Virus record (IMG/VR): IMGVR_UViG_3300032030_000073 | Span: 4,086 to 68,085 of that record | Source: a virus | Lineage: Duplodnaviria; Caudoviricetes | Length of the DNA: 64,000 nucleotides | Reading direction: 5' to 3' (one strand) | The notes under the pieces: generated by a model | What the model was told of the DNA's origin: nothing | Database searches by the model: none | The model's input: the letters and a program-made list of their open reading frames with translations, nothing else | Shown here: piece after piece, positions 3,973 through 43,500 of the stretch | How the letters are laid out: every line of letters starts with the position of its first letter | Numbering within the stretch: the stretch's first letter is position 1 | Program-made: the position numbers and the translations under genes

Positions 3973-4355
3973 AGATTTTGGGCGTTTGGCGATTTTGTGT
4001 GCGAAGAGCGGCAATTTGATTTTTGGCAGCGAGAGCGACGGTTTTGGCCGCTCGCGCTGGTATGAGGCGGAGGGCGGAGCGCATCCCCTAATATACCCCT
4101 AATATGGTACGCGCGTGCGCGTGGGCGTAGCGCGTGCGCGACATAGGGATGAAGATAGTAAGAGGAAGGGTTGGGAATTGATCGGTGGTGGATTTGACGC
4201 CCTGGGCGCCGCCCCGCGCTGGATGACGGGGGAGCGGGGGCCGGGATCGGGCGCAGAGCGTGCGCGGCCCGGGCCGTTATAATGCGCTTGTTTATATTTG
4301 TATATTGGCGAAATTGGGAGAAATAAGAAAAGTGAAATTTTTTGCGGTTGCCCCC

Positions 4356-26521: not shown

Positions 26522-26767
26522 ATGAGTGACGAGAGCGTGAAGCTTGAGACGCTGACGGACATCGCGGATTGGTTGCGCGATCCTAAAATCAAGAGCCCGA
26601 TGCGAAAGACATGGCGGGAGGTACTGGCCAATCGCCTGGAGAAGGTGGCGAAGCGCGCATACGAGGAGATAGATAAAGCGGTGACAGGAATCGAGGATGC
26701 GTCGTCGAGTGAGAAAGACGACGTGCGCAAGGTGATGGAAAGGACAATCGGTGATTATTATGAGTGA
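26522..26767 (+). CDS. Hypothetical protein
   Basis: 81 aa, RBS GAGGT. Confidence 0.6.
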   Translation: MSDESVKLETLTDIADWLRDPKIKSPMRKTWREVLANRLEKVAKRAYEEIDKAVTGIEDASSSEKDDVRKVMERTIGDYYE

Positions 26768-27089
26768 TAGTGCATATACAAGTGGGTGGCTTGTAGATAA
26801 AGAAAAGGAGGAGGGTGCAAGAGCAACACTTCGCAAGGCGTTGTCTGAAGCAAATTTCGAGTATTATTGCGCGAACTACGCAATCGCAACGGCGCAGCCA
26901 GAACTAGAAGAGTGCCCATTCTGCAAAAACAAGCTGGTATATTTGCGTGAAGATTATGGTGATGCTTATGTGCATTGTCCAAAATGCAACGCGAGGGGTC
27001 CTGGCATATATCTGTTCAGAAATGAATTGGGGTATCTTAAAGCATTGGAAAAAGCGGTGAACGGATGGAACAGGAGGGCCGAGGCATGA
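26760..27089 (+). CDS. Lar-like restriction-alleviation Zn-ribbon protein
   Basis: LEECPFC...VHCPKCNARGP...AVNGWNRRA. Confidence 0.72.
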   Translation: MSDSAYTSGWLVDKEKEEGARATLRKALSEANFEYYCANYAIATAQPELEECPFCKNKLVYLREDYGDAYVHCPKCNARGPGIYLFRNELGYLKALEKAVNGWNRRAEA

Positions 27090-27439
27090 AGAAGCTGAAG
27101 AGAAGTGATTGTGCGGTGCTATATCTCGGTTTGAAGCACTACTGGTATCGGATGATCGAAAGCGGCGTGAAGAAGGTAGAGTTCCGGGAGGCGTCGCCAT
27201 ATTGGAATGTTCGCATCAATAATTGGTCGAGACGGATGCCAGGGAAGACGCCGGTCCTGGAGTTCCAAAGCGGGTACGGAAGGTTCTCGCCGAGGATGTG
27301 GTTCATCGCCGGGAGAGGCGAGGGCGTGGTATTCACGTACAGCGGCGCCGACGTGCCGGTGCAGCACAGGGAGCTGGGCGAGTTCCAGAAAGCGCGATAC
27401 GCGCTCTTGATCGGCGAGAGAGTGATGTTGGAAGGATAG
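27086..27439 (+). CDS. ASCH/PUA-like domain protein
   Basis: LGLKHYWYRMIESGVKKVEFRE.SPYW..RI. Confidence 0.72.
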   Translation: MKKLKRSDCAVLYLGLKHYWYRMIESGVKKVEFREASPYWNVRINNWSRRMPGKTPVLEFQSGYGRFSPRMWFIAGRGEGVVFTYSGADVPVQHRELGEFQKARYALLIGERVMLEG

Positions 27440-27452
27440 GAGCAATGAACCA

Positions 27453-28025
27453 ATGAGAGAGAAAGACCAAGAGACGCAAGTGGACATCATAGCGGAGATG
27501 CGCATGGGAAATCCAGTCGGGCCGTGCGCGTACAGGATCGGACTCCCAGACAAGGAAGAGGTCTATGAAAGCGGCGCTAAAATGCGCATCACGATGATCA
27601 AGAACGTGACCGTGCAGGAGCTGGCTGACCGGTTGGAGGCGACGGAGAAGAGGAAGAAGGCACAGCACGGCAACGCGGCGAAGATGCGCGAGGCGCTGGC
27701 AACGCTGCGGAAGCGGTTCGATAATAACACGATGGCATACCAAGACCGCTACTTCAAATTCAGCGGGTGGCATTGGCACAAGAAGGCCAAAGAGGCAGCG
27801 CGGTGGCGCGACGTGTTCCACGAACTGCGGGAAGTGTGTGACGCCGCCCTCTCCGCGCCCGCGAGGAACTGCGACAAAATGCCAGACATAGACAATCTAA
27901 CCATGCACGACCTCGCAAATAGTCCGTGCAAATCAACTCTGGAGTACGCCTCTCGTGAGGAGCTGCTTGCGCTGGCGCGTTGGCTCCTCACCCCGGCGGC
28001 GGAGCGGGAAGGCGGGAATGAATGA
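27453..28025 (+). CDS. Hypothetical protein
   Basis: 190 aa, RBS AGGAG. Confidence 0.65.
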   Translation: MREKDQETQVDIIAEMRMGNPVGPCAYRIGLPDKEEVYESGAKMRITMIKNVTVQELADRLEATEKRKKAQHGNAAKMREALATLRKRFDNNTMAYQDRYFKFSGWHWHKKAKEAARWRDVFHELREVCDAALSAPARNCDKMPDIDNLTMHDLANSPCKSTLEYASREELLALARWLLTPAAEREGGNE

Positions 28026-28176
28026 AGATGAAGATTACTTTTCAAGCAGGGATTCACGTTGTCGAATCTGAAACGGATTGCAATCCGGCTGATATGCGCC
28101 GTGTTTTCAATGCGCTAATTGCGGAAGTTGACAGGGCAATGACCATTGTACTTCACCGTGAGGAAGGAGCGGAGAA

Positions 28177-28497
28177 ATGATTTACATTGCAGGGCCAATG
28201 CGGGGATTGCCGCATTCCAATTACCATTCATTCCGCGCGGCGGCGGAGCGGTTGCGCGCCGTGGGGCACAAAGTACAGAATCCCGCAGAGATCGGGGAGC
28301 GTTTCGGCGGCATTGACGAACTGCTTTCAAATGACGCCACGCTTGCCGCGTGCGTGAAAGAGGAATTGCGCATCCTGGCGGAATGTGATTCTATCTATCT
28401 CTTGCACGGATGGCAGTATTCAGAGGGCGCACGCGCCGAATTGAAGCTTGCCATTGAAAAGGGATTGGATATCTTCCTGGAGCCTGATTATCCATAA
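28177..28497 (+). CDS. DUF4406 family (nucleoside deoxyribosyltransferase-like fold)
   Basis: IYIAGPMRG...NYHSF...NPAE...CDSIYLLHGWQYSEGARAE. Confidence 0.85.
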   Translation: MIYIAGPMRGLPHSNYHSFRAAAERLRAVGHKVQNPAEIGERFGGIDELLSNDATLAACVKEELRILAECDSIYLLHGWQYSEGARAELKLAIEKGLDIFLEPDYP

Positions 28498-28507
28498 AGG
28501 AGATCAA

Positions 28508-29719
28508 ATGTGGAAAAGCCGAAATACTCGCTGCACCTTTTCGCCGGAGCCGGAGGAGGACTGCTCGCCGACATCATCGACGGGATACGCCCCGTCTGCG
28601 CCGTCGAAATCGAGAAGCATCCCCAGCGCATCCTCGCAAAGCGGTTCCCCGACCTCGCAATCTGGGATGACGTGCGGACGTTCCGCGCCGACAATCCGGA
28701 CTGCGCGGAGGCGTTCACGCAACTTCGCGCTCACGCCGACGAACTTGTCATTGCCGGAGGCTTCCCGTGCCAGGATATCAGCTGCGCGGGACGCGGCGCG
28801 GGCCTACGCGGAGCGCGTAGCGGCCTATGGCGAGAGTATGCGCGTATCATTGGCGAGATACGACCGCGATTCGTGTTCGTGGAAAATTCACCCATGCTTA
28901 TTCGGCGGGGACTTGGCGACGTTCTCGGAGGCTTGGCCGCGATGGGGTATGATGCTGCGTGGTGTGTCGTGTCGGCTGCCGACATGGGAGCCATGCACCT
29001 GCGCGAGCGGTTCTGGCTCACGGCCCGGCGCATGGCCGATGCCGACGGTCCACGGGAATAACAACTACAAAGGCGCAAGCGCAAAAAGCGGCGATGGGCT
29101 GATGACGGTGGTTAGACGCAAAGAGGAAATGATACCTTCGCCACAGGCAAGGGATAGTCATGGCGGTACGGCGCGTCCGCATGGCTGGGCGAAGTCCGAA
29201 GCGGGTGAGCAGCGCAACATCAACGACTTTGTGCTGCGTTTTCCGACATCTAAAGCGAGAGACGCCATCAAGTGTTCGCCCGGGCAAAAGCCGCGAGACG
29301 ACTTGAAATGCGCCGTCGAAATTGGCACGACGAAATCAGCGACATATCCGACGCCGCGAGTCAATTCATTGTGCGGCGGTACGGGCGCATGGAACGCGAT
29401 CCAGAATAATCCGAACCTCACCGTCGAAGAAAAACGCGGCATGACATCTACACACGGCCTGCTTAACCCCGACTGGGTGGAATGGCTCATGTTCTGGCCT
29501 GTCGGCTGGACTAACCTCGATACGCCGAACCACCGCCTCGTCTGGCTCGACCCGTCAATCGACCCCGCCGATTTCGATGACGGCGCGAGGATCCCTATAA
29601 TCACTACGCGCCGCGAGAACCGTCCCGCGCGCATCAAGGAGTGTGGCAACGGGCAGTTCCCCCTCTCCGCCGTTGCCGCGTTCTTCTGGGGCCTCTGCGT
29701 TTTGGAGGTCGTAGTATGA
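28508..29719 (+). CDS. C5-cytosine DNA methyltransferase, beta subunit (TRD plus motifs IX/X), overlapping alpha in another frame
   Basis: TFSEAWPRWGMM, PTP-like repeats, LNPDWVEWLMFWPVGWT, RIKECGNGQ. Confidence 0.75.
   Translation: MWKSRNTRCTFSPEPEEDCSPTSSTGYAPSAPSKSRSIPSASSQSGSPTSQSGMTCGRSAPTIRTARRRSRNFALTPTNLSLPEASRARISAARDAARAYAERVAAYGESMRVSLARYDRDSCSWKIHPCLFGGDLATFSEAWPRWGMMLRGVSCRLPTWEPCTCASGSGSRPGAWPMPTVHGNNNYKGASAKSGDGLMTVVRRKEEMIPSPQARDSHGGTARPHGWAKSEAGEQRNINDFVLRFPTSKARDAIKCSPGQKPRDDLKCAVEIGTTKSATYPTPRVNSLCGGTGAWNAIQNNPNLTVEEKRGMTSTHGLLNPDWVEWLMFWPVGWTNLDTPNHRLVWLDPSIDPADFDDGARIPIITTRRENRPARIKECGNGQFPLSAVAAFFWGLCVLEVVV
28510..29061 (+). CDS. C5-cytosine DNA methyltransferase, alpha subunit (motifs I-VIII)
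   Basis: HLFAGAGG, GGFPCQD, VENS and HLRERFW motifs; ends before motifs IX/X; GTG start. Confidence 0.88.
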   Translation: MEKPKYSLHLFAGAGGGLLADIIDGIRPVCAVEIEKHPQRILAKRFPDLAIWDDVRTFRADNPDCAEAFTQLRAHADELVIAGGFPCQDISCAGRGAGLRGARSGLWREYARIIGEIRPRFVFVENSPMLIRRGLGDVLGGLAAMGYDAAWCVVSAADMGAMHLRERFWLTARRMADADGPRE

Positions 29720-30220: not shown

Positions 30221-30678
30221 ATTGCGACCATTGCGAATCTCGCCACGGATGTTCGATCAGGAAAGCGCACGACGATGGGACGGCTGTCTTTTCGTGCGGC
30301 ATCGACTTCGGGCGCGACAAGTCAGAGACCGCGATACTCGAATCGCGCAGGGGCAAATTGGCTGTGAGATACGAGTTGATCGACGATTCGCGTCTGCGCT
30401 CGTGCCGCGATTGGTTTGACGAGGAAATAAAGAAGCGGCTGTCGAAGTTCTTCGCCAAACGGGTGAAAAAGGTCGAGGCCGATGTTCTTGCATGGATCAA
30501 GCGCAACCCGCTATGCTACACGAATCCGTGCAGGGCGATTCTTGACGGAATCTGCTGCGCCACAACGCCTGCGATATATCCGCATGGCAACGTGCTTGCC
30601 GAGCGACACGACGTATCGGAGTTCTTTCTCCGCTTCCCCCGCGCTCTGCCAACCGAGCTGAAAGGAATCGCAGTATGA
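30217..30678 (+). CDS. Hypothetical protein with N-terminal Cys cluster
   Basis: 153 aa, MNCDHCESRHGC...C. Confidence 0.6.
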   Translation: MNCDHCESRHGCSIRKAHDDGTAVFSCGIDFGRDKSETAILESRRGKLAVRYELIDDSRLRSCRDWFDEEIKKRLSKFFAKRVKKVEADVLAWIKRNPLCYTNPCRAILDGICCATTPAIYPHGNVLAERHDVSEFFLRFPRALPTELKGIAV

Positions 30679-31061
30679 AAATCCCCTCTGTCTCTCTTCT
30701 TCTCCTGATGATTCTCGGGCACCTCGTCGCCGACTACACCTTGCAGGGCTGGCTCGCCTCCGGTAAGCAGAAGAAATGGTGGGACGGCCAGTTAAAGGAC
30801 GCGCCCGACTCCGTGAAGCGCAAGTACAGGAACGACTACAAGGTCGCCTTGATCTGCCACTCGCTCTACTGGTCGATAATCGTGTGCCTGCCGCTGCTGT
30901 TCCATCCTGCGTTGTTCACGATAAATGCCATCGGCCACGCCGCATTGCATTATCTGATCGACGACGCGAAGGCGAACAAATTAGCAATCAACCTCGTTGA
31001 AGACCAGGCTTTTCATTTCGTCCAGATTCTTTCGGTCTGGCTTGTCTGTGTAATTGCATGA
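30675..31061 (+). CDS. DUF3307-family membrane protein
   Basis: GHLVADYTLQ, CHSLYW, HYLIDDAK, DQAFH. Confidence 0.85.
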   Translation: MKIPSVSLLLLMILGHLVADYTLQGWLASGKQKKWWDGQLKDAPDSVKRKYRNDYKVALICHSLYWSIIVCLPLLFHPALFTINAIGHAALHYLIDDAKANKLAINLVEDQAFHFVQILSVWLVCVIA

Positions 31062-31074
31062 AAGGAACTTCCCT

Positions 31075-31998
31075 ATGAACAAATCCAACATCATAAAAAC
31101 CAACTTCGACCGAAAGGTGTTGTCGTCAAGTGACACCAACGTCTTCAAGTTCGTCTTTACAAAACCAGACGTTGCCGTCGAGGCCGTCCTCTACCGATAC
31201 GGTTCGTTTCGCAAGCGAACGGTCATCTGCTGTTCGACGCAATGCGGATGCCCCGTGGGATGTTCCTTCTGTGGCACGGGGCGCGGATTCGTCCGTTCGC
31301 TGTACTCGGACGAGATAGTCGATCAGATACAACAGGTGATGGAGATTGTCGAGAAAGATTGCCCATCTTCGGAAATCGAGAAGTTCCAGATAATGTTTAT
31401 GTCGATGGGCGAGCCGTTCCTGAACTACGCAGGACTTCACCTGGCGATAGTTGCGCTCCATGACATGTACCCCAATGCCCAGCTTCTCGTATCGACTTCC
31501 GCGCCGAAAAAGATGATTGATGAAGTTGACTTTCGCACCTTCACCGATCTTTCACAAAGGATTTCTGAAATCGGCATTCAGTTCTCGGTACATGAAAGCA
31601 CGGATGAGGCGCGGCGCAAGATCATCCCGACCCCTACATGCAGCCTTGAGCAGATTGCCCGGCTCGGAGAAACCTGGGCGGCGCACACGTCGCGCAAGCC
31701 GTTCTACAACTATTGCGTCCATGTCTGGAACTCGAGCGACGCGGACGTTGCGCGGCTTGTGTCCCTGTTCAATCCGGCTGTATGGGAAACGACGCTTTCC
31801 GTGATATGCGAGAAAGACGAAACCGTAAAAGCGTCTCACGAGCGCCAGCTTCCGTTGATACGGGATTTCTCGCGGAGGTTGCTTGAAAAAGGCGCGTCCG
31901 TGAGAATTTTCAACCCGGCCGGACAAGACGACATCGGCGGCGGATGTGGACAGCTTTGGTTTTTTCAGAAATGGCTACGTGAACACGGAGGCAAGTAA
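31075..31998 (+). CDS. RlmN/Cfr-like class A radical SAM methyltransferase lacking the N-terminal domain
   Basis: CCSTQCGCPVGCSFC (CxxxCxxC plus upstream Cys), MSMGEP, FSVH, DDIGGGCGQL; 307 aa. Confidence 0.88.
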   Translation: MNKSNIIKTNFDRKVLSSSDTNVFKFVFTKPDVAVEAVLYRYGSFRKRTVICCSTQCGCPVGCSFCGTGRGFVRSLYSDEIVDQIQQVMEIVEKDCPSSEIEKFQIMFMSMGEPFLNYAGLHLAIVALHDMYPNAQLLVSTSAPKKMIDEVDFRTFTDLSQRISEIGIQFSVHESTDEARRKIIPTPTCSLEQIARLGETWAAHTSRKPFYNYCVHVWNSSDADVARLVSLFNPAVWETTLSVICEKDETVKASHERQLPLIRDFSRRLLEKGASVRIFNPAGQDDIGGGCGQLWFFQKWLREHGGK

Positions 31999-32435
31999 TG
32001 AGAAAGAAGAAACCCATAAAGAAAATGACCCTGCGCGGATGCCAGACCGCACTCGGGATCGCAAGACGTAAAATGCGCGATGCAGAAGCTCGTCATGAGA
32101 CACGCTATCAGCTCGCGTTAGAGAACATTAGACTCCTTCGGCAAGCCCTTGGCGAACCCGACCCAGGGTTTGGAATGCGCGACTATAAGCAATTCAATGT
32201 TGACATCGCGCTTGACAGGCGCGAGTTCTGGCCGTTACCTCCAATCCACATCCACATCACGCCAAAGCGCGAGTTGTTCAATCCATACAGCGATGCCATT
32301 CCGTACACGTTTAAAATGTACATTCCAAGGGACGAGGTACTTGATTATCGAACGGCGAGGATAGTCCACAACGCCCTGCACCAGCTCGTTGACTTCGCAG
32401 AGATGCGTCCGAACACGGAGGCGAGCGAGAAATGA
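31998..32435 (+). CDS. Hypothetical protein
   Basis: 145 aa, TAATG coupling. Confidence 0.6.
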   Translation: MRKKKPIKKMTLRGCQTALGIARRKMRDAEARHETRYQLALENIRLLRQALGEPDPGFGMRDYKQFNVDIALDRREFWPLPPIHIHITPKRELFNPYSDAIPYTFKMYIPRDEVLDYRTARIVHNALHQLVDFAEMRPNTEASEK

Positions 32436-32953
32436 ACAAATCCTATAACATGAACATCGACACCGGCGAGAAGACATGGCTCACCCCGCCGCACATCATC
32501 GAAGCCCTCGGCCCGTTCGACCTCGACCCGTGCTGTCCGCCGACGATGCCGTGGCGCACTGCGACGCGCATGGTGCATTGGCCGGAGGACGGCCTGAATG
32601 TGGACTGGACAGGCAAGCGCGTTTGGTGCAATCCGCCGTACGGGCGCGACGCCGTGCCGTTCCTCCGCAAGATGGCGGAAAACAAGACGGGGGGTGGGAT
32701 TTTGCTTATATTTGCGCGGACTGACACCTCCGCGTGGCAGGACTATATATTCCCGTACGCAAGCGGCGTTCTGTTCCTTCGCGGGAGGCTGCGCTTCCAC
32801 AGGCCCGACGGAACGCAAGGAGAGACGGCTACGGCGCCCTCTGCGCTCGTCGCGTACTTGGATCGGGACTTCATGCGTCTGCGCGAGAGCGGGCTTAGAG
32901 GCGCGTTTTTGCGCGTCTCGAGTTATGCTTTAGGCGGCAGTATCGCGAAGTAA
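32432..32953 (+). CDS. Phage DNA N6-adenine methyltransferase (phage Dam-like)
   Basis: WLTPP, FDLDPC, VWCNPPYG, ARTDT.W, LFLRGRLRF. Confidence 0.9.
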   Translation: MNKSYNMNIDTGEKTWLTPPHIIEALGPFDLDPCCPPTMPWRTATRMVHWPEDGLNVDWTGKRVWCNPPYGRDAVPFLRKMAENKTGGGILLIFARTDTSAWQDYIFPYASGVLFLRGRLRFHRPDGTQGETATAPSALVAYLDRDFMRLRESGLRGAFLRVSSYALGGSIAK

Positions 32954-34131
32954 GCCTCGCCCTCCGCGCGCAGCTCCACGCCGTTGTAGTTCCGCGCGCG
33001 CACGTCGTCCGTGTTGCCGACTATCGCCGTCAGCGCGTTCGCGTCGTGGTGAACGGCCTCGAACATCGTGATGAACGTATGACGCCCCGCGTTCTTCGTC
33101 AGCTTCGCCTTCGCCGCCGACGCCGCGTCAACGAGGTGCCGGCGGAACTGCTTGTTCCTCGTGGTGGCTCCGTCCATGAAGTCGAACGCGCGCATCCACG
33201 CGACGGCCTGCTCGGGGATGGTGAACGCCCTCGGCTTGATCCCCTTGCTGACGCCCTTCGGGATTCCAACGCGGATCGTGCGTTCGTCTATGCTTATCCT
33301 GATTGCGTGCTCGCCGAGTGGAGCGCGGTCGATTTCGCTCTGGCGCATCCCGCAGAAGAACGACAGGATGGCGCATGCGAGGTCCGCGCGTCCGCACGGA
33401 GAGTCGCGCCTGTTCCAAAGCTCGCCGAACAGCTTCTTCACGTCCTCCGCCTTCATGTACTCCGGCTGCCGGTACGGAATGACAATCTTCTTCATCCCGT
33501 CCAGCGGGTTCTCGCGAAGGTACTTCTGCTCGACGTTCGCGCACCACGAGACGAACGCTTTGATGTTGCCGAGGTGGTTGTTGTACGTCACCCACGAGCC
33601 GATGTCGCCCTGCCTGTAGAAGCCGTCCACAAGGTACTTCTTGACTTCCGGCGCGTTGATGTCGGACACGGGCCTCGCCTCTCCGAACGCGCTCACGAAC
33701 GCTCCAACGCGCAGGCGCACGTCCTTCTTGTACGGCTCGCTCTTGTCCTGCACGGCCTTCGCGTAGCCGGCATACGCCTCGCCAATCGTGACGGACGGCG
33801 TCTCCTCCCTTTCAGGCTCGCCCGCGAGCACGATCTTCGCGCACTCCACGAGCGTCATGCTACGCCCGCTCTGCGCGATCATGTCAATAGCCTGCTTGGC
33901 GTCCATCGCCTGGTATCGCGTCAGCACGGCCCCGGCCTCGCCGCTCTGGTCAAGCGTCTTGTAGAACTCGGCTATCTTCTGCTTCAGCCTCTTCTCGTTC
34001 GTCGCGGACTTGCGCACCGGCTTGCCCGTGAAAGGGTCTGTTCCGAAATACGCCTCGTAGATGGCGTACCCACCCTTCTGGACCCTCGCCTTGACCGTGG
34101 CAAGAGCCTCGTTTTTCGGCAAAAAACTCAT
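32923..34131 (-). CDS. int: Tyrosine integrase
   Basis: FFCGMRQSE (R), K in the beta hairpin, KNAGRHTF (His-to-Asn variant of HxxR), RNY (Tyr); N-terminal arm and core-binding regions; adjacent attP. Confidence 0.9.
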   Translation of the reverse strand: MSFLPKNEALATVKARVQKGGYAIYEAYFGTDPFTGKPVRKSATNEKRLKQKIAEFYKTLDQSGEAGAVLTRYQAMDAKQAIDMIAQSGRSMTLVECAKIVLAGEPEREETPSVTIGEAYAGYAKAVQDKSEPYKKDVRLRVGAFVSAFGEARPVSDINAPEVKKYLVDGFYRQGDIGSWVTYNNHLGNIKAFVSWCANVEQKYLRENPLDGMKKIVIPYRQPEYMKAEDVKKLFGELWNRRDSPCGRADLACAILSFFCGMRQSEIDRAPLGEHAIRISIDERTIRVGIPKGVSKGIKPRAFTIPEQAVAWMRAFDFMDGATTRNKQFRRHLVDAASAAKAKLTKNAGRHTFITMFEAVHHDANALTAIVGNTDDVRARNYNGVELRAEGEAYFAILPPKA

Positions 34132-34229
34132 TTTCAACTCCTGTTTTTTGCACCGATTCCTTTGCGAAAAACTTACGAGAAACCGAAGTTTACTCGCAAG
34201 AAACCTAATGCTTGTTTTTCATGCCGCAT

Positions 34230-34533: not shown

Positions 34534-37500
34534 TCACTTCCGGCGCGAACGGCGAATCTTGTCCAGCAGGATCGACTTCTGCCGTTCGATCTCGTTTGTC
34601 AGCGATGCCGTTGGCGTGCCGCCCTTCTTCTCGATGTCCTTCGCCTTGCGCTCAAGCCGGTTGACGGCCTTGATGCGCGCGTCGATGTCGCCGCGCACGG
34701 AATCGGCCATGAGCGGGCTTTCAGACTTCATGCCGTCAAGCAGCTCCTTCCTTTCAGACTGCGTGAGTTCCGCGTCCTTGCTGATGGCGTCGTATGCCCT
34801 CTTTTCTTCCAAGAAGCGGTTGACGGCGTTGTCGTAGGGCTTTCGGTCGTATGTCGAGCCTCCAGCGCCGAGAATCGACAGCGGAACCGTGACAAGCGAT
34901 TTGCCGACGCCGTTCTGCACGATCTGGTCCTTCACGTCATCGAACGTTAGCGGGACGAGCATTTCCCAAACCATATTGCCGACGCCGTACTCTTCGCCCA
35001 CGTAGTCCTTGCCTTCCCAGAGAGCGACAATGGTAGACGCCGACGGGGACAGCTTGCCTTGCAGATAGCGCCCGATCGCACCCATGGTCGTCGGACCGTT
35101 GAAGTCTCCAAACTTCATCACGCGTCCCGTGCTAGAGCGCTTGGACTTCGTTGCCAGCTGATGCACAAGCCTGTTGAACGTCGATTCGCCGCCCGTAAGG
35201 TCTATCGTAGTGTTGCCGATCTTCGGAGAGGCTATCATCATCATCTTCTCGAACCAGTCGGCCTGCGAGAAGTCGTACTTGTCGTCGTCGTCCGAAAACA
35301 GCCATTTGAGGAGCGAGCCGATGGCAAGCATCGCGACGGTCGATCTCAGATGCTCGCGAAGACCGATCTTCGCCGCCGTCTTGCGCTCGTCGTTCGACAC
35401 CTTATCGAACGAACCGTCGGCGTTCTTTATCCCCTTCGCGACGAGCGGATGCCAAATGTCGTATCCGACGGCGGACTGGACGCGGGAAATGGCGAGCTGC
35501 GGCGCCCAGAAGATGTCGTTCACCCACGCCTTCTGCAACGCCTGGCGGCGCTCCTTCGAGAGCGCGGCGGAGCCGTTCCAGATGTTGATCATGTCGGCTA
35601 TCATCTTCTTCTGCCACGGCGTCGCGCCACCTGGAATGCCGTTTACGATGGACGTGTAGAGGTCTGCGGACATGGCGTTGAGGTACGTCAGGTAGTGACG
35701 TTCGCTCTTCAGCATGAACTCGCCGAAGAGCGGGATGTCCGTGATGGCGTACTCCTTGCCGAAAATCTTCACTTTGTTGCGCTCCATGCCGTGGAACATC
35801 TCGACGTCGCGGTCGCTCTGCGCGTCCACTTCGCGGAGGTGAAGTCCGAACTTCTTGACGGCCTCCTGTACGGTCGGGTCGGACAGAATCTCCGTGTTCA
35901 CGTCAAGTAGGCTCGCCTCGGAGCGCGCCGCCGTCCACGCCTTGCCGAACGACCGCGCCGCCTTGACGGGATGTCCGAGCGTCATGCGCGCGGCCTGCCG
36001 AAGGACGGCGGAGAAGTCCATCGTGGCACGAAGCGCGCGCTGGGCGGTCGTGACGAAGCGCAGGAAGTTGACGCCCTTGCGGACGAACGTCGGCACGGTG
36101 GCGTTCTCCGCCTCAAGGCGAAGTTCCGCCAGCTTCTGCCGTCCGCGCTTCATCTGCTCGCCAAGCTCGTCGTACCGCTTCTGCTGGTCTTTCGTCATAG
36201 GCGGCTGCGGCTTCTTCTGCGGACGAATGTCGCCCGTCGCGATGCGTTCCGCGAGACGCGCCAGGGCCTTTTCGCGGCTTGCCATCTTCCGGGCGTTCAG
36301 CGCCTCGATCTCCTCCGGCGTCATGCCGAACGCGTACTTAGCGTTCTTCAGTTCGCGGATGGATTCGCGCACCTGCCTGATGCGGTCGCGCAGCGTCTCT
36401 ATCGTCTCCGAGGTGACGCCCGGACGCTGCGGACGCTTCGAGAAGTCGCCGGACTGCGCACGGGCGAAGTCCTCCATCGCGCGTTCGAGCTCTTTTGCGA
36501 GGAGTTTTTCCGTGAGCGCGATGCGCTGCGCGTCGGTCATCTCGCGCGTCGTTCCGAAAAGTTCGTCGTACTGCTTCTGCAACTCGTCCTTCTCCGCGCG
36601 GAGTTCGCGGACTCGGATGTCGTCAACCACCTTCCGCTTCGGGACTGGTATGCGCTCGCCGGTCTCAATGGCGCGTTTCAGATCAGCGATCCTGTTTTCA
36701 AGGTTCCGTTTTATCGTGTCGAGCGTGCTTTTCAGCCGCCGCTCGTCACGTCCGGCGTCGGGGACTTCCGCCTTTCGGTCGCGCACCCTCTTCGCCCACT
36801 CGCGCTCGTCCTGCGTGGGCTCGTCGCGGATGGGGCCGGTCGCGGGCGGCATCGTGTTCGTCTCGTCCATCCAGTCGATCTGACGCTTCGACCTCGAAAT
36901 GTTGCGGAGGCTGTTCATCAGCCGCTGCGCGTCATAGCGGGACTGCTTGTAGTTGTGCCCGAAGCCCGTCAGCGCGTCACGCACCTGGTTCGCGTCCACG
37001 CCGTCCATGAACGGCGAGATGTCCCGGACAATCGCGTCTATCACCTCTTCCTCGGTGATCTCCGGGTTGAGGAAGCAGTGGTACTCGCCGATCTGGCGGA
37101 GCCACTTGCCCCACGACGGGTACTGCTGGTCGGAAAGCCCGATGAGCGTGCCGCCCGTCTCGGCCGCGCCGACCTCGATCTGCGTGAGCGCGTCCTGGTA
37201 GTTCTGCGCGACCTTGCGCGCCACGTCGCCCACCTTGCGCTCCGTGGCCTTGCGCACCTTCAAGCCGTTCTTCGTCTGGTCGATGACCTTCTTGGAGAGC
37301 GGGATAAGCCGTTCCGTCGCAAGGCGCAGACCTTCCTCGTCAAGCCCCTCGAAGAGCTTTGCGAGGTCGCGTATCCGCGCGTTCATTTCTGGCGTAATCT
37401 TGTCAATGCCGCCAAGGGTCTGCGCGATCCTGCCCGCGATTCCCGCATACGAATAGTCGTGCGCGGCGATGAGCGCGCGGTTCGAGCGCAGCGCGCGGCC

Positions 37501-40500
37501 CTGCTCGGACGCGCCCATCATCGCCGCCTTGCCGGCCTCCGCCATCTGCGCCTTGGCCTGCGCCAGCTTCGCCGACACCTGCCTCAGCTCGTCCCGCAGC
37601 TCCGGCGTCTTGTTCATGTCGTCCTCCGGGATCGCCGCAAGTTCGGCGCGGCGTCTCTCCAGGTCGTTCACGGCGGCCTGCCGCTGGCGGAACAGCACAT
37701 TCAGCGCGACGTTCTCGTAGTCGCGCGTCGGGCGCGGGAACTTCGCCACGGCGCGGGAGAGCTTCGCCATGTACGTGGGGTTGGAGAGCAACGTCTCCAC
37801 CTGCCTCCACATGTCCGCGTCCGTCTTCCTGACGTGCGCGGGTGGCTCCATGCCCGCCGCCTTCAGCGCGGTGGCGATCTCGTCGTTCGTCATGCCGTAC
37901 ACCTCGCGCATGATCTTCTCGGTGGGCGTCTTGTCCTCGCTTGCGGCATACTCCGCCTCGGCGGGCGTAAGCTCCGGCGTGTCGAAGCTGACAAGAGATT
38001 CGCCGAATGGGCCGCGAGGGTCTTCAATGTCGCGTTCGATAGCTTTGTACGCATCGTTTATCTTCTGCGCGACGCGATTAAGCCGTTCAAGGTCTTCTCC
38101 CTTAAAGTTGCCCGACTCTACAAGGTTCTTCAACGCCTCCGCGAACGGCCCGGCCTCTCCTGGGCCGATCGCATACGGATCGAAGTGCATGGAAATGCTG
38201 GCTTCGCCGGATTCGATGGAGTCGAGGATTTCCAGCAGGTCGCCGTTTGTGTACCAGTCAATTTCCTCACGGTCCTCACCAATTCCGTTCCGTTTAAGTT
38301 CTTTCAGCTGGTCGCGCAGTTCCTTCGCGTCCTCGCGATAATACGTCTCTCGTTTTTTGTAATAGTCCACATTGAGCGGATCTTCTTCGGCTAATCTTTT
38401 TTGCTCCCTCGCCTTTGCGTTATCCTCATTGATGCGCCGCTTGAGGTCACGCGCCTCAGATTCCGACGGCGTGTCGTCGGCACCCGCTTTGATATTCCGC
38501 TTCGCAGTCTTGCGCAGGGCGGCGATGTCGTTCAGCATTTGTTCATCATGCGTGGAAATCCACCACAGAGAATGGTCAAGGCGTTCTGGAACCGACGAAT
38601 AATCGGCGCTTAGTTCCGGCGTGTCGAATTGCAGGACGCCGTCGGTCCACTTGTGGTCCACGCGGATGTGCTCGTCCGAGAACGCGACGTAGTTCCACCC
38701 CGCCTTGTCGCCGTCCTTAAGAGTTTTGCCATACGAGTCGACCGGGTACTTCACACCGTCGATGCCGGCTCGCGCAAGGAACTCGGAAGCGGCTTTGGGT
38801 CTATTTGACGTTCTCGGGAAGAACTGGCATGTCAATTTGTATAGGTCTTCGCCTGTCTTGACATTGATGTTTATGTAGCCACCGTTCAACGTAACCGGCT
38901 GATAATAATGTCCGGTTCCATCGTCCGCCCACAGAAGAATCTTACCGTCTTCGTCCGTCCTTCCATATTCATCTTCACGTATTACCCCCTCTTCTTTGGC
39001 TTTGTCTATGATACGATTCACAAGTTCTTGCTCTACCGGCTCGTACCACTTCAAGAGGTGGCTCTCGTCGCCCGGCGCCCGGTTCGTGAAGAACGTTTGC
39101 TCGTAGAGGTGATTGTTTGTACCATACCCTTTAGGGATTATCGCATCATGCCAAGTCGACTTCTCAAGAATGTCTTTAACAACTTCCAAGCCTTCGGCAA
39201 ACTTGTCGTGAGCAAGGCTTTTATGCTTATCAATGGCTTCGGAGACTTCTTCGATAGCCTTTTGTCTTGATGTCTGATTCCACCCGTGCTTTCTCAACTT
39301 CTCACGTGCAGAATCAATCGCCCATTTGGGAAATCCATTTTCGGGCATATCATAACCAGGGTCTTGGGCCAATCCAGATTTGCGAAGACTATCATCATGC
39401 GCATACCCCTCCGCGACGCCGCGCTCTGTGCTCCCGTAGAGCCCCCAGCCGTAGACCTGGCTGCCCTCGCCCGTGCCGATGTACTTAACGCTCGGCCCGT
39501 CGTCCACGCCGCCCTGGCGCGAGCGGTTCGCGTAGTCCGCCGCCGTGCCGGTGTAGATGCCGGGCGTGTCGAAGTCCACGCCGCCCTGCAACGCCCGGAC
39601 GCGCTCCGCGAACTGCGCCTTGAGTTCGGCGCGCTCCGCGTCCGTCTTCGCCGCCCTGTACGCCGCGTCGATGCGCTGGAGGGCGGGGTCGCTGCGCATG
39701 GCCTCCCTTGTCTGCTCCGCCACTCCGCGCCGATATGCGTTGCGCTCCTCTCCCGTGAGCGTGTCCTTCATGCCCGTGGCGGAAATGTCGCCCATCGGCA
39801 CGGTGCGCGTCTCGACCTTCTCCGGCGCGTAGCGGTTCGCGCCCGGCGTGCGCACCTGCACGTCCGCCGTGCCGTCTGCGTTCGCCTTCAGGAACGTGAC
39901 GCGCTGGCCGTCCTTCGCGCCCTTCAGGAACACGCGGTCGCCGCGCTTGAACGCGGGCTTTTGGGGTTTTTCGCCCGTAAAAACGGGCGACACTGGACGC
40001 GTCGCCGTAGGTTTTGCGGCTGGCGCGGCGTTTTCCGCCGACTCCCCACCCTGTGGCGCGCTTGCGGGCGCTTCGTCCCACGAATCGTCGTACTCGCCGA
40101 TCTCGTCAAAAGCCTGATTGGTGGCGCGCCTGACGGCCTCCTCGTATGCCGCGACCTCGCGCTGACGTTGACGGGCAATCTCGCTTCCGTTCGCGTAGTA
40201 TTTCCCAGTCTTGGGGTTTATCACCGAGTGGAACGGCGCTTTCTTCTTGAGTTCGTCGGCGATCTTCTTTGCCTCGGCCATCTTGGCTTCCCAGTCGGCC
40301 TTTGAAGTCGCCTTCGTGAATGTCTTTGGGAACTTCACGTCCGGCAGTTCGACTTCGTACTCCCTGCCGTTCTGGACGATTCGTACAGATTCGCCGTCTC
40401 GCGTCGTTTTCACCACCTGTGGCGCGTCCGCGCTCTTCGGTGGCGTAGTCGTGCCATCCGCGCGCGGCGCGCTTGCAAGGGCGGCTTTGGCGGGTTTCCG

Positions 40501-43500
40501 CGCCGCCTGCTTGCGCTGCCATTCCGCGAAACGCCCGTCGGTGTCCTTCATCTTGTACTTTTCAAGCCACGCAAGGTATTCTGCGGGGCGTTCCGCAGCC
40601 TTCTCCTTCGCGGCGGGCGCGGTCGCTTCACTCTCCGCGATAGGCGAGAAAAGGTCCTGCTGGCCGGTCTGGCCCAGGTCCATCTCCGGCTGCACGTTCA
40701 CCGCGCCGCTGCCCTTCAAGGGCGCTTCCTGGCGCTTCTTGATCTCCGCCTTTTCGCGGCGCTTCTTCTCCTCGGCGGTTATCTGCTCTGCCGTGACACT
40801 TTCGAGCGAGAGTTGCGGCGCGATGCCGAGGTCCGCGTCCATCTGCGCCTTGTCCGCGTCGTCCAGGCGGATCGCGTTCTCCCAGTAGTTCGCCCTCTCC
40901 ACCGCCTTGTCGCGCGCGGCGGCGAGCTGCGCCTTGTCCTTCGGATCGGATATGCCAAGCTCCTTCGCATAGTCCTTGTTGAGGTCGAGACGTCCGCCCT
41001 TGCGCATGGCCGTGCGCAGGTTCTCCGCGATGCGCTTGTACTCGTTCGCCTTCTTCGCGCGGTAGTCGGCGCGCTTCTCCTCCTGCTGGAGCAGAGCAAC
41101 ATCCTCCTCGCTCGTGAAGAGGTCGAGCTGCGTACCGCTGTCGGCCTTCGGCGCGTTCTTGCGGTTCTTCGCCTCCTCTGCGAGCGAACGCGCGAGGATC
41201 GCTAGCTTCTTCCCGCGAACGCCGTCAAGCGCGCGGCGCACGAGGATGCGCTGGAGCGCGGCCTGTTTCGGCGCGGCGTCCGCGATGATTGCGGCCTGCT
41301 CGGCGGAGATCAGTCCGTCTCCGCCTGTTCCTTCCCAGTCGATTGCGCCTCGCGTATCGTCTGTCGCATTTTGGACAATGCCGAACGCCATGCGGCCTTT
41401 CTGCCTGTTGAGGATGCCGGAGGATTTTGCGTCCTCCTCGCTGAATCCCGATTCCTCGAAGAATCTAACATAGTCTTTCACCGTTCCTTTCTCGTCGAGA
41501 ATGTTCGCAACCGCGTCGTAGAGACGCATGTCCTCCGGCGTGTAGCCGTCGGCCTCGCGGAATATGCGCGCGTCGATGTCCTTCCAGCCGGAGCGTTTCG
41601 CCGCGTCCAGCCTGTGGCGGCCCGTCACGATTTCCATTGTGCCGTCCTTGCGCTCGTAGATCGCGATGGGGTTCTCGGCGTTCTCGTAGTATTCGCCAAG
41701 CTCCTGCCCCTTCACGACGCCCGTCTTCGGGTCGGCGTTCTCCTTGAACTGGGTGTCGGGAATCTTGATTCCGTCAACCGGCACGCGACGGCGCTCGCCC
41801 TTGCGGTGCATGACGTTCCAGAAGCTGCTCTCGCTCATGGGCTGCCGCCCCGCATCCCCGCCGATGGTATCGGCGGGCGCAGGACGCTCGGCGGTGTTCA
41901 AATTTTGACCGCCGTTGTCAGATTTTGACGGCTCTACCACTCCCGCATCTGGCGCTTGCGCTCCCGGCTCCGCTCCCGCTTCGGGTTGCGGCGCTTCTTG
42001 CCCCCGCTCTTCGCCCTGTTCGGGCTGCGGCTGTGCTTCATCGGTTCCATTCCTTGCTTCATCCGTTACTCCTTCTTCGTATCTCACTCCGCTGTCACCC
42101 GGCAGCGTTTCAAGCTCGTTCTCGCCCTGCGCGCCCTGTTTCTCCGCCTCGGCGAGCATCACCTCAAGGTCGGACTGGTCTATCGGCACGTTCTCGCCCG
42201 CGTCGCGGCGGCGCTGGTTCAGCTCGTGCTTCCGCTTCTCGTACCACGTCGGCTGGTGGAGCCGTCCCTGCGCGTAACGCGCCATGGCCTCGCGCGCGTA
42301 CTCGTCCATGGACATCGCGGCGGCGACCTGCATCCTCGCCGTGTCCTCGTCCATGCCGGCCGCAACGAATCTCTGCACGGCCCTCTCCTGCTCCGCGAGA
42401 ACGAACTTGCTGAAACCTTCCGCCTGCGCGTTCTGGATGAACTCAACCGTGTTCGCGCCGCGCCCCGTGGCGCTCTCCACGCCCTCGTGGCCCGTCGCCT
42501 CGTGCGCAAGCACGCGCTCCATTTCAGCAGGAGACGGCACGTTGTCGAGGATCACCACGATATGCCCGTCTGGCGTGTGGAAGCCGCCCGCGCCGGGCTG
42601 CTTGAGGCTTCCGTCTGCCTTGAAGAGCTGGTCGGCGCGCGTGATGCCGTAGATGTTTCCGCCGTCGTTGATTGCCTGCGCAACCTGCCAGCGCAGCGCG
42701 GCCTCTGACGGGATGGAAACGACGTTTCGCCCAGCATACTGGCGCTGTACGAGCCCCGTGAGATACTGCGCCTTCTGCGCGTTGTCCGCGTCCATCGACT
42801 GGTTGCGCACGACTTCCTCGTCTGCCTTTTTCTGCGCCTCCTCGAACGAGTACGCGGGAACGGCGTCAAGTCCCCGGAAGTCGTTCATCACGTAGAACGT
42901 GCCGTCGCCCTGGTCCACGATCGTCACGCCGTGCGCGGCGTCGGTCATCGCGTTCATCGGCGCCTGCTTGCCGTCTGGCGTGAAGCGCATCATCTGCTGG
43001 AACACCGGCTTGCCATCCTCTCCGGTCTGTATCGTGAACCTCTCTGGCGCGATACCGCGCTGTTCAAGCGACTGGCGCATCTTCAACCCGTCGCGCGCCG
43101 TCAACTCGTCAACAGCGGCCCTCATCGAATAACCGAGGTTCTTCACTTCTTCCTTCAGCTTGTCCGGGTCGGCGGAATACTGTTGCCACATCTCAGTCAG
43201 TTTTTGCTGCTGCTCCGGCGTGAGCGTGGAGATCGTCTCGTCTGAAATGCCGGAGCGCTTCAGCGCCATGCGGATGTCGCGGCGGGCGTCCGCGGACGAT
43301 ATGTGCTGCGCGACACCCTCGCTCGTGCTCTTCACCGCGCCGATCGCAAGCTGGGCTACGAGCCCGTAGAAGATGTCCCACTGCGTCTGCCAGTTGAGCT
43401 GGTTGTCCTTGAAGTCCTGCCATTCCTGCGCAAGCCCCTTGTATTCAGAAGACTTCCCGTCAAGGCCAATCACCTTCTCGAACGCCTGCACGTTCTCTTC

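Follow-up and report, generated by a model that had tools for sequence, protein, structure and literature searches.

To our knowledge, the class A radical S-adenosylmethionine (SAM) methylases characterised so far are limited to RlmN and Cfr, both of which act on RNA. What, then, would a short relative of these enzymes do in a phage? The question is raised by a gene in a stretch of 64,000 nucleotides (hereafter the window, i.e., the whole stretch of DNA that was analysed), which covers positions 4,086 to 68,085 of the IMG/VR record IMGVR_UViG_3300032030_000073, a virus of the Caudoviricetes. The record is 68,085 bp long, has direct terminal repeats, and reaches a CheckV completeness of 100%, so the gene is encoded by a phage, as the original prediction for this locus had claimed. 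We found that it encodes an intact class A radical SAM enzyme that is under selection and belongs to a distinct short family. The relatives of this enzyme recur among genes of nicotinamide adenine dinucleotide (NAD) salvage, which tentatively points to a nucleotide of the NAD pathway as its substrate.

A short class A enzyme with intact catalytic residues

The gene and its diagnostic sites are the following:

31062..31067, plus strand: AAGGAA, a Shine-Dalgarno-like site 7 nt 5' of the ATG at 31075 (direct sequence reading)
31075..31998, plus strand: short RlmN/Cfr-like radical SAM gene, 307 aa from the ATG, stop included (list of open reading frames, ORFs)
31228..31233, plus strand: codons of C52 and C53, within CCSTQCGC; C52 aligns with the resolving cysteine (alignment)
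31249..31272, plus strand: CxxxCxxC, the [4Fe-4S] cluster site formed by C59, C63, and C66 (motif and family alignment)
31945..31947, plus strand: codon of C291 in GGGCGQLW, counterpart of the methyl-carrier cysteine, C355 in RlmN and C338 in Cfr (alignment with the CGQL cysteine of both)

The AAGGAA site begins immediately past the stop codon of the preceding gene, and its position 7 nt before the ATG supports 31075 as the start of the gene; a TTG at 31054 is a possible alternative. Both of the mechanistic cysteines required of class A (RlmN/Cfr type) methyl synthases are present. The first, C52 (codon 31228-31230), aligns with C118 of RlmN and C105 of Cfr and sits 7 residues ahead of the first cluster cysteine, at the same spacing as in RlmN. 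The protein also has the motifs M111-G-E-P114 and S171-V-H173, which means that every catalytic motif named in the original prediction (C52, C59/C63/C66, MGEP, SVH, and C291) is in place. The same prediction held that the N-terminal domain was missing, and the alignments agree: they begin at position 74 of the 355 positions of the RlmN profile TIGR00048, at residue 91 of the RlmN structure 6fz6, and at residue 61 of the Cfr structure 9p0p. These late starts indicate that an N-terminal domain of ~60-70 residues (HhH2) is absent from the window protein.

The assignment to RlmN/Cfr-like class A enzymes is borne out by the motifs, the fold, and the match to TIGR00048 (93.6 bits, E 1e-26; 92.5 bits in the genome search). 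In the PDB, RlmN 6fz6 matched at E 5e-16 and Cfr 9p0p at E 3e-14. An AlphaFold2 model of the window protein, built on a 27-sequence alignment, has a mean predicted local distance difference test (pLDDT) score of 90.9 and shows a radical SAM barrel; it starts with the beta-extension. Its top fold matches are all radical SAM enzymes, led by RlmN (template modelling, TM, score 0.71-0.74; E 1e-18 to 1e-14) and including Cfr. The general radical SAM profile PF04055 scores 25 bits, under its gathering score of 29.5 bits, so membership of the superfamily rests on the motif and the fold. The ratio of nonsynonymous to synonymous substitution rates (dN/dS) is 0.08-0.28 against relatives of 76-87% identity, indicating purifying selection on the gene. 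In PHROGs, the protein has only weak matches, to phrog_24834 (unknown function) and phrog_27142 ('Fe-S-cluster redox domain-containing'), and PADLOC gave no defence-system match for the enzyme or its uncharacterised neighbours.

Separation from RlmN and Cfr

The window protein fails the curated NCBIfam cut-offs of both enzymes. That of RlmN (TIGR00048) is 290 bits, and those of the Cfr models NF000424, TIGR04432, and NF011024 are 530, 550, and 468 bits, against scores of 75.8, 69.2, and 70.5 bits for the window protein. Its identity to plasmid cfr genes is at most ~31%. We placed the protein in a maximum-likelihood tree of 99 proteins, in which it falls within a 40-row clade of proteins of 280-310 aa, together with those of Stenotrophomonas phage BUCTxx99, Salmonella phage Arash, and a Vibrio phage. 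Elsewhere in the tree, a branch of 99% SH-aLRT support sets off canonical RlmN together with Cfr(B) and Cfr(C), the last two lying deep within the canonical clade and distant from the window protein. The protein is thus not nested within ordinary host RlmN, and a recent origin as a fragment of a host gene is ruled out by the tree, by purifying selection, and by the size of the family. Nor do these comparisons support the Cfr-type resistance that had been considered possible for it, given the position outside the Cfr clade and scores far under the Cfr cut-offs. Judged by sequence comparison, the window protein is neither RlmN nor Cfr.

The comparison with the two enzymes is nevertheless informative about chemistry. 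With RlmN (Escherichia coli YfgB; TIGR00048; PDB 3RFA, 5HR7, and 6FZ6), the synthase of 2-methyladenosine (m2A) at position 2503 of 23S rRNA and position 37 of tRNA, the window protein shares the fold at the TM scores given above, the cluster site, the resolving cysteine 7 residues upstream, the methyl-carrier cysteine of CGQL, MGEP, and SxH. These common motifs and the common fold lead us to expect the same two-SAM methyl-synthase chemistry. The differences from RlmN are an identity of 20-24%, the lack of HhH2, a separate clade, and active-site residues particular to the short family, such as Q169 and N212, where RlmN has A/T and E. Genomes that encode RlmN can hold the short form too, and the context of the latter is NAD salvage, not ribosome biogenesis. 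Cfr, Cfr(B), and Cfr(C) (PDB 9P0P) make 8-methyladenosine (m8A) at position 2503 of 23S rRNA and confer resistance to phenicols, lincosamides, oxazolidinones, pleuromutilins, and streptogramin A (PhLOPSA). They have the class A mechanism and the core fold in common with the short family but carry the N-terminal domain that it lacks, and the window protein lies outside their clade. The short family has a valine in place of Ser103 of Cfr, which contacts the phosphate of U2504, once the shift of 2 residues between the numbering of Cfr(B) and that of Cfr is taken into account. Mapping the RNA contacts of Cfr residue by residue was not discriminating for the substrate, as several contacts differ even between RlmN and Cfr.

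A large and mobile family

We delimited the short family as proteins of ~290-310 aa that lack the N-terminal domain, have a mutual identity of at least ~45%, and belong to a common clade. The window protein has no N-terminal domain, lies in that clade, and is 45-65% identical to the products of 80 viral and more than 50 genomic loci. A word-indexed protein search returned 5397 relatives, the best 120 of which all have at least 60% identity and a length of 290-310 aa, and an exhaustive search gave 65 clusters at E < 1e-30. Cultured phages of Stenotrophomonas, Salmonella, Vibrio, Xanthomonas, and Aeromonas encode members at 45-52% identity, as does an uncultured phage of 462 kb. Viral contigs carrying the family number 80 and range from 14 to 429 kb, and the nearest ESM Atlas clusters are 84-100% viral. 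Members of ~50% identity are also found in genomes of Actinomycetota, Pseudomonadota, Bacillota, Bacteroidota, Saccharibacteria, Planctomycetota, and Methanobacterium. The tree of the family disregards taxonomy, which indicates frequent horizontal transfer. The family is large, horizontally mobile, and mostly phage-borne, with proteins of ~300 aa that have lost the HhH2 RNA-docking domain. We found no description of it in the literature on phage RlmN/Cfr-like enzymes, NrtR, or NAD salvage. One pairing in the tree joins a Mycolicibacterium canariasense copy (L107) to a Saccharibacteria copy (L118) as sisters, with 98% support. As Actinomycetota are the hosts on which Saccharibacteria live, the pairing looks like a gene transfer between host and epibiont or one mediated by phages.

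The cluster cysteines C59, C63, and C66 are invariant across the 27-sequence family alignment. The resolving cysteine (at position 52 or 53) and the methyl-carrier cysteine are kept by most members and lost in a few divergent ones: the carrier in P0143, P0169, and P0176 (GPGQ, VPGQ, and GAGH, respectively) and the resolving cysteine in P0158 and P0176. The full RlmN mechanism is impossible for these proteins. The median isoelectric point (pI) is 6.3 in the short family, with many members near 5, and 8.4 in canonical RlmN/Cfr, the pI of a whole protein being a crude proxy for electrostatics. One short RlmN-like protein, P0090, carries a C-terminal extension of 130 aa on the short core, which is ASCH-like as judged from sequence alone.

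Public labels for the family are inconsistent. The BUCTxx99 homologue (L001, OR529408.1 96510-97469) was deposited as 'prohibitin family protein', and other records read 'ribosomal RNA large subunit methyltransferase N' or 'hypothetical protein'. For the short family, database labels such as 'rRNA methyltransferase' or '23S rRNA (adenine2503-C2)-methyltransferase' are unsupported. Homology alone could likewise trigger a flag for Cfr-type resistance, which the evidence does not back.

Genetic organisation of the loci

In an all-against-all clustering of the ORFs from 84 loci, no neighbour was common to more than 4 of the 31 viral lineages of the radical SAM gene. Since neighbours are not shared, and the ORFs flanking the gene in the window recur only in the nearest phage, the gene moves as a single cassette. 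DNA methyltransferases beside it recur only sporadically over the family, and those flanking it in the window are ordinary company in an accessory region. The RNA or DNA targets put forward in the original prediction thus gained no specific support from conserved partners or from these methyltransferases.

The context of relatives elsewhere is the strongest clue to function. We clustered the ORFs around 54 genomic loci, identified the neighbour families by Pfam, and followed up with seed searches. Six neighbour families recur: NadE, isochorismatase/PncA, two forms of nicotinate phosphoribosyltransferase (NAPRTase), NrtR (Nudix plus winged helix), a cytidylyltransferase of the nicotinamide mononucleotide adenylyltransferase (NMNAT) type, and Nudix. 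The members in such operons are 48-64% identical to the window protein and come from several bacterial phyla; comparable sets occur in phages, with genes of nicotinamide phosphoribosyltransferase (NAMPT). Representative arrangements are the following (rSAM, the short radical SAM gene):

L104, Alphaproteobacteria, 64% identical to the window protein: pncA-pncB-nadE-rSAM
L109, Ornithinimicrobium: pncA-rSAM-nrtR, stop and start codons overlapping
L144, Muribaculaceae: Nudix-rSAM-nadE-NMNAT
L116, Saccharibacteria: rSAM-pncA-pncB-NMNAT
L020, phage: prs-like/rSAM/NAMPT, contiguous
L083, phage: rSAM/prs-like/NAMPT-like
L004 group, phage: rSAM, then PncA-NAPRT

Comparable NAD arrangements were found in Clostridia and Bacilli, and a NAMPT gene lies 1 kb downstream of the radical SAM gene in a Methanobacterium metagenome-assembled genome (MAG; L108). 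In phages, NAMPT adjoins the gene in L020, L072, and L083, and the largest viral group has PncA and NAPRTase 2-4 kb downstream. NAD genes are present at 13 of the 54 family loci and at none of 25 control loci of distant RlmN-like genes (Fisher p 0.007), and at least 9 independent changes are needed to account for the NAD context on the family tree. L020 and L104, the two rows at the shortest path length from the window protein, are both among those with the NAD context. A fusion with a Nudix domain (P0129) falls inside the clade of the window protein, and in more distant short clades there are fusions with isochorismatase/PncA-like (P0261) and HD plus HD_assoc dNTPase-like (P0221) domains; these fusions seem to point the same way as the NAD operons. 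Within a pncB-Nudix-nadE-NMNAT operon of a MAG of Bacilli, the short radical SAM gene (L157:6067-6884) is interrupted by one TGA and one TAA and appears to be a decaying copy.

These gene sets are familiar from elsewhere. Phage modules for NAD+ reconstitution and salvage reportedly comprise Adps and Namat in NARP1 and Nampt and Nmnat in NARP2 (bioRxiv 10.1101/2024.02.11.579819). NARP3 consists of PnuC and NadR, with no radical SAM component. The bacterial NrtR regulon includes pncA, pncB, nadD, nadE, and prs-nadV (PMC2330246). The same sets of genes enclose relatives of the gene studied here, and the literature that we found on phage NAD+ reconstitution or the NrtR regulon does not name a radical SAM component. 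The genes nrtX and nrtY of the NrtR regulon, of unknown function (PMC2330246), could not be matched to the short family. Unlike these sets, the carrier phage has no other NAD gene: neither a NAPRTase/NAMPT gene nor a Nudix gene turned up anywhere in its 68 kb, and the window gave no NAD seed match. The phage is thus a compact temperate genome that bears the radical SAM gene without any NAD gene, which implies that the enzyme must be useful alone, on a substrate supplied by the host.

Which substrate?

The NAD operons, together with the coexistence of the short form with canonical RlmN, suggest a different substrate, probably a small molecule. Our preferred reading, which we put slightly short of an even chance, is that the window protein works on its own as a class A radical SAM C-methyl synthase, with an adenine- or pyridine-containing nucleotide of the NAD pathway (e.g., NAD+, nicotinic acid adenine dinucleotide (NaAD), or ADP-ribose) as its substrate, and not 23S rRNA, tRNA, or DNA. 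As the relevant residues are conserved, the enzyme would follow the mechanism of RlmN and Cfr. SAM would first methylate C291; a 5'-deoxyadenosyl radical generated at the C59/C63/C66 cluster would then convert this methyl group to a methylene radical, which would attack the substrate at an electron-poor aromatic carbon; the covalent adduct between enzyme and substrate would finally be resolved by C52. In the carrier phage, the product of this lone accessory gene near the integrase would act by itself on the host's metabolite pool, with a plausible role in the contest over NAD+ during infection. NAD metabolism has come to be seen as a central front in the conflict of phages with bacterial immunity, and the recurrence of the family in operons of NAD salvage and reconstitution points to an undescribed reaction of this metabolism. 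A bolder extension, which we consider somewhat doubtful, is that the family would include the first class A synthase working on a small molecule, which would methylate a ring carbon of NAD+, NaAD, or ADP-ribose. It would then serve phages, alone or with prs-like and NAMPT genes, against NAD-depleting immunity, and cells in NrtR-controlled NAD homeostasis.

Several observations speak against an NAD-type substrate. The carrier phage has none of the partner genes, so the link comes from relatives only, and a NAPRTase-family gene is present in only 2 of the 4 cultured carrier phages. About 80% of the family loci have no NAD gene within 4-6 kb, and auxiliary genes of phages cluster for causes besides common function. 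We know of no natural C-methylated metabolite of the NAD type. The only characterised relatives of the family act on RNA, all characterised class A enzymes being methylases of RNA adenine, and the short family keeps the beta-extension, the radical SAM core, and the C-terminal tail that in Cfr grip the single-stranded U-turn. To these can be added tRNA genes within 4 kb of the gene at 6 of 57 viral loci, RNA-linked neighbours that sometimes lie close by in large phages (RtcB three times, RNA ligase twice, a CCA-adding enzyme, a Pnkp-like protein, and Tpt1/KptA), and two Saccharibacteria that have the short form and no other RlmN homologue, in which it could stand in for RlmN.

The latter observations, and the location of the BUCTxx99 gene inside a cluster of tRNA genes, would suit an RNA adenine C-methylase that makes m2A or m8A with relaxed or different recognition, e.g., in anticodon loops of host or phage tRNA (A37) or in another hairpin loop, and that could tune translation or shield tRNAs from anticodon nucleases. 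We regard such an enzyme as possible but rather unlikely. In a cryo-electron microscopy preprint on Cfr with rRNA, the beta-extension and C-terminal tail are described as holding the U-turn in Cfr, and the HhH2 N-terminal domain as recognising the L-shaped tertiary fold of the RNA in Cfr and RlmN. The short family retains the former and lacks the latter, and a bare anticodon stem-loop is not methylated by RlmN (PMC5130265). In addition, canonical RlmN above its cut-off accompanies the short form in all 3 genomes tested outside the candidate phyla radiation, many members of the family are acidic, and the tight cellular operons with pncA, pncB, nadE, and nrtR include no RNA gene. A specific link to tRNA was rejected, as the window has no tRNA gene and such genes are nearby in so few viral loci. 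A 63-kb related contig encodes the Tpt1/KptA RNA 2'-phosphotransferase (PF01885; L183:4662-5240) 1.8 kb upstream of a radical SAM gene that is 76% identical; this NAD+-consuming RNA-repair enzyme could be a bridge between the NAD and RNA-repair contexts.

The other alternatives concern DNA and antibiotic resistance. The enzyme might place a C2- or C8-methyl on the adenine of phage DNA or on dATP, as a new anti-restriction mark alongside the neighbouring methyltransferases. In the carrier phage, the gene does share an accessory block with a Lar-like protein and C5 and Dam-like methylases, in L184, a close relative, the start of the gene is overlapped by an N6_N4 methylase, the gene is directly next to Dam-like genes in L103, L148, and L019 (and 2.3 kb from them in L097-L101), and N6_N4 methylases are near it at three genomic loci. 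This is still very unlikely: DNA methylases are common in the accessory regions of temperate phages, none is conserved with the gene across lineages, and the C5 methylase of the carrier phage is split by a frameshift. Judging by the RlmN/Cfr mechanism, the cost of two SAM and a low-potential electron per turnover would also be a poor fit for marking a whole genome, and a DNA mark leaves the NAD operons of non-viral genomes unexplained. As for Cfr-type resistance, in which m8A2503 would be made in the 23S rRNA of the host and a PhLOPSA phenotype would result, the weak homology to the Cfr models (69-76 bits) and to Cfr 9p0p and the presence of both mechanistic cysteines would allow it, but the cut-offs are as high as 468-550 bits, the tree puts Cfr(B) and Cfr(C) far away inside the canonical clade, identity to plasmid cfr genes is low, and the protein has no N-terminal domain of the kind that anchors Cfr on H91/H92. 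We consider it extremely improbable. An NAD-pathway nucleotide hence remains the substrate that we favour.

The carrier phage and the genes flanking the enzyme

The carrier is a compact temperate phage in which the radical SAM gene closes an accessory block on the plus strand, near the integrase. The annotated genes around it are the following:

26751-27089, plus strand: Lar-like restriction-alleviation protein (library match)
27065-27439, plus strand: protein of phrog_625, a family of unknown function; ASCH-like by sequence motif alone
28177-28497, plus strand: DUF4406 / nucleoside 2-deoxyribosyltransferase-like protein
28510..29719, plus strand: C5 cytosine DNA methyltransferase, broken across two frames (PF00145 in the first half; the halves match phrog_363 and phrog_1008)
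30675..31061, plus strand: DUF3307 membrane protein, 128 aa, the upstream neighbour (PF11750, phrog_2470)
31998..32435, plus strand: 145-aa ORF, the downstream neighbour, whose start overlaps the stop of the radical SAM gene
32432..32953, plus strand: Dam-like orphan DNA N6-adenine methyltransferase (PF05869 E 1e-11, phrog_111, PADLOC orphan methyltransferase)
32923-34137, minus strand: integrase
34534-45450, minus strand: single ORF of 3638 aa beside the integrase

The gene had been described as lying between a C5 and an N6 DNA methyltransferase. It is indeed loosely flanked by the two, but neither is adjacent. The C5 methylase is 1.36 kb away on the upstream side, beyond three other ORFs, and the 145-aa ORF stands between the radical SAM gene and the Dam-like gene. 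The C5 gene is moreover split, at about 29000-29060, into an N-terminal half at 28510-29061 and a C-terminal half in the frame of 29060-29719. The break falls just past motif VIII (RERFWL), the C-terminal half holds a motif X-like GNGQ, and the junction has no homopolymer; a frameshifted pseudogene, an error of assembly, or a programmed shift could each account for the split. The Dam-like gene is a member of the accessory region and is not demonstrably tied to the function of the radical SAM enzyme.

The immediate neighbours are narrowly distributed. The DUF3307 gene, whose stop is 13 nt ahead of the start of the radical SAM gene, recurs only in the closely related phage L184, where it is 2 kb away from that gene. 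The 145-aa ORF has no match in Pfam, PHROGs, or PADLOC; it is 88% identical to the ORF that follows the radical SAM gene in L184 and is missing from all the other loci compared. Further upstream, the part of the accessory block at 26751-28497 (plus strand) also includes an uncharacterised protein of 190 aa, and genes for DUF4406 and ASCH-like proteins are near the radical SAM gene in L185 too. The 3638-aa ORF beside the integrase gave no Pfam match when searched as four pieces of 640-1000 aa. Its counterpart in L184 has 3351 aa and matches PF18857 (LPD38).

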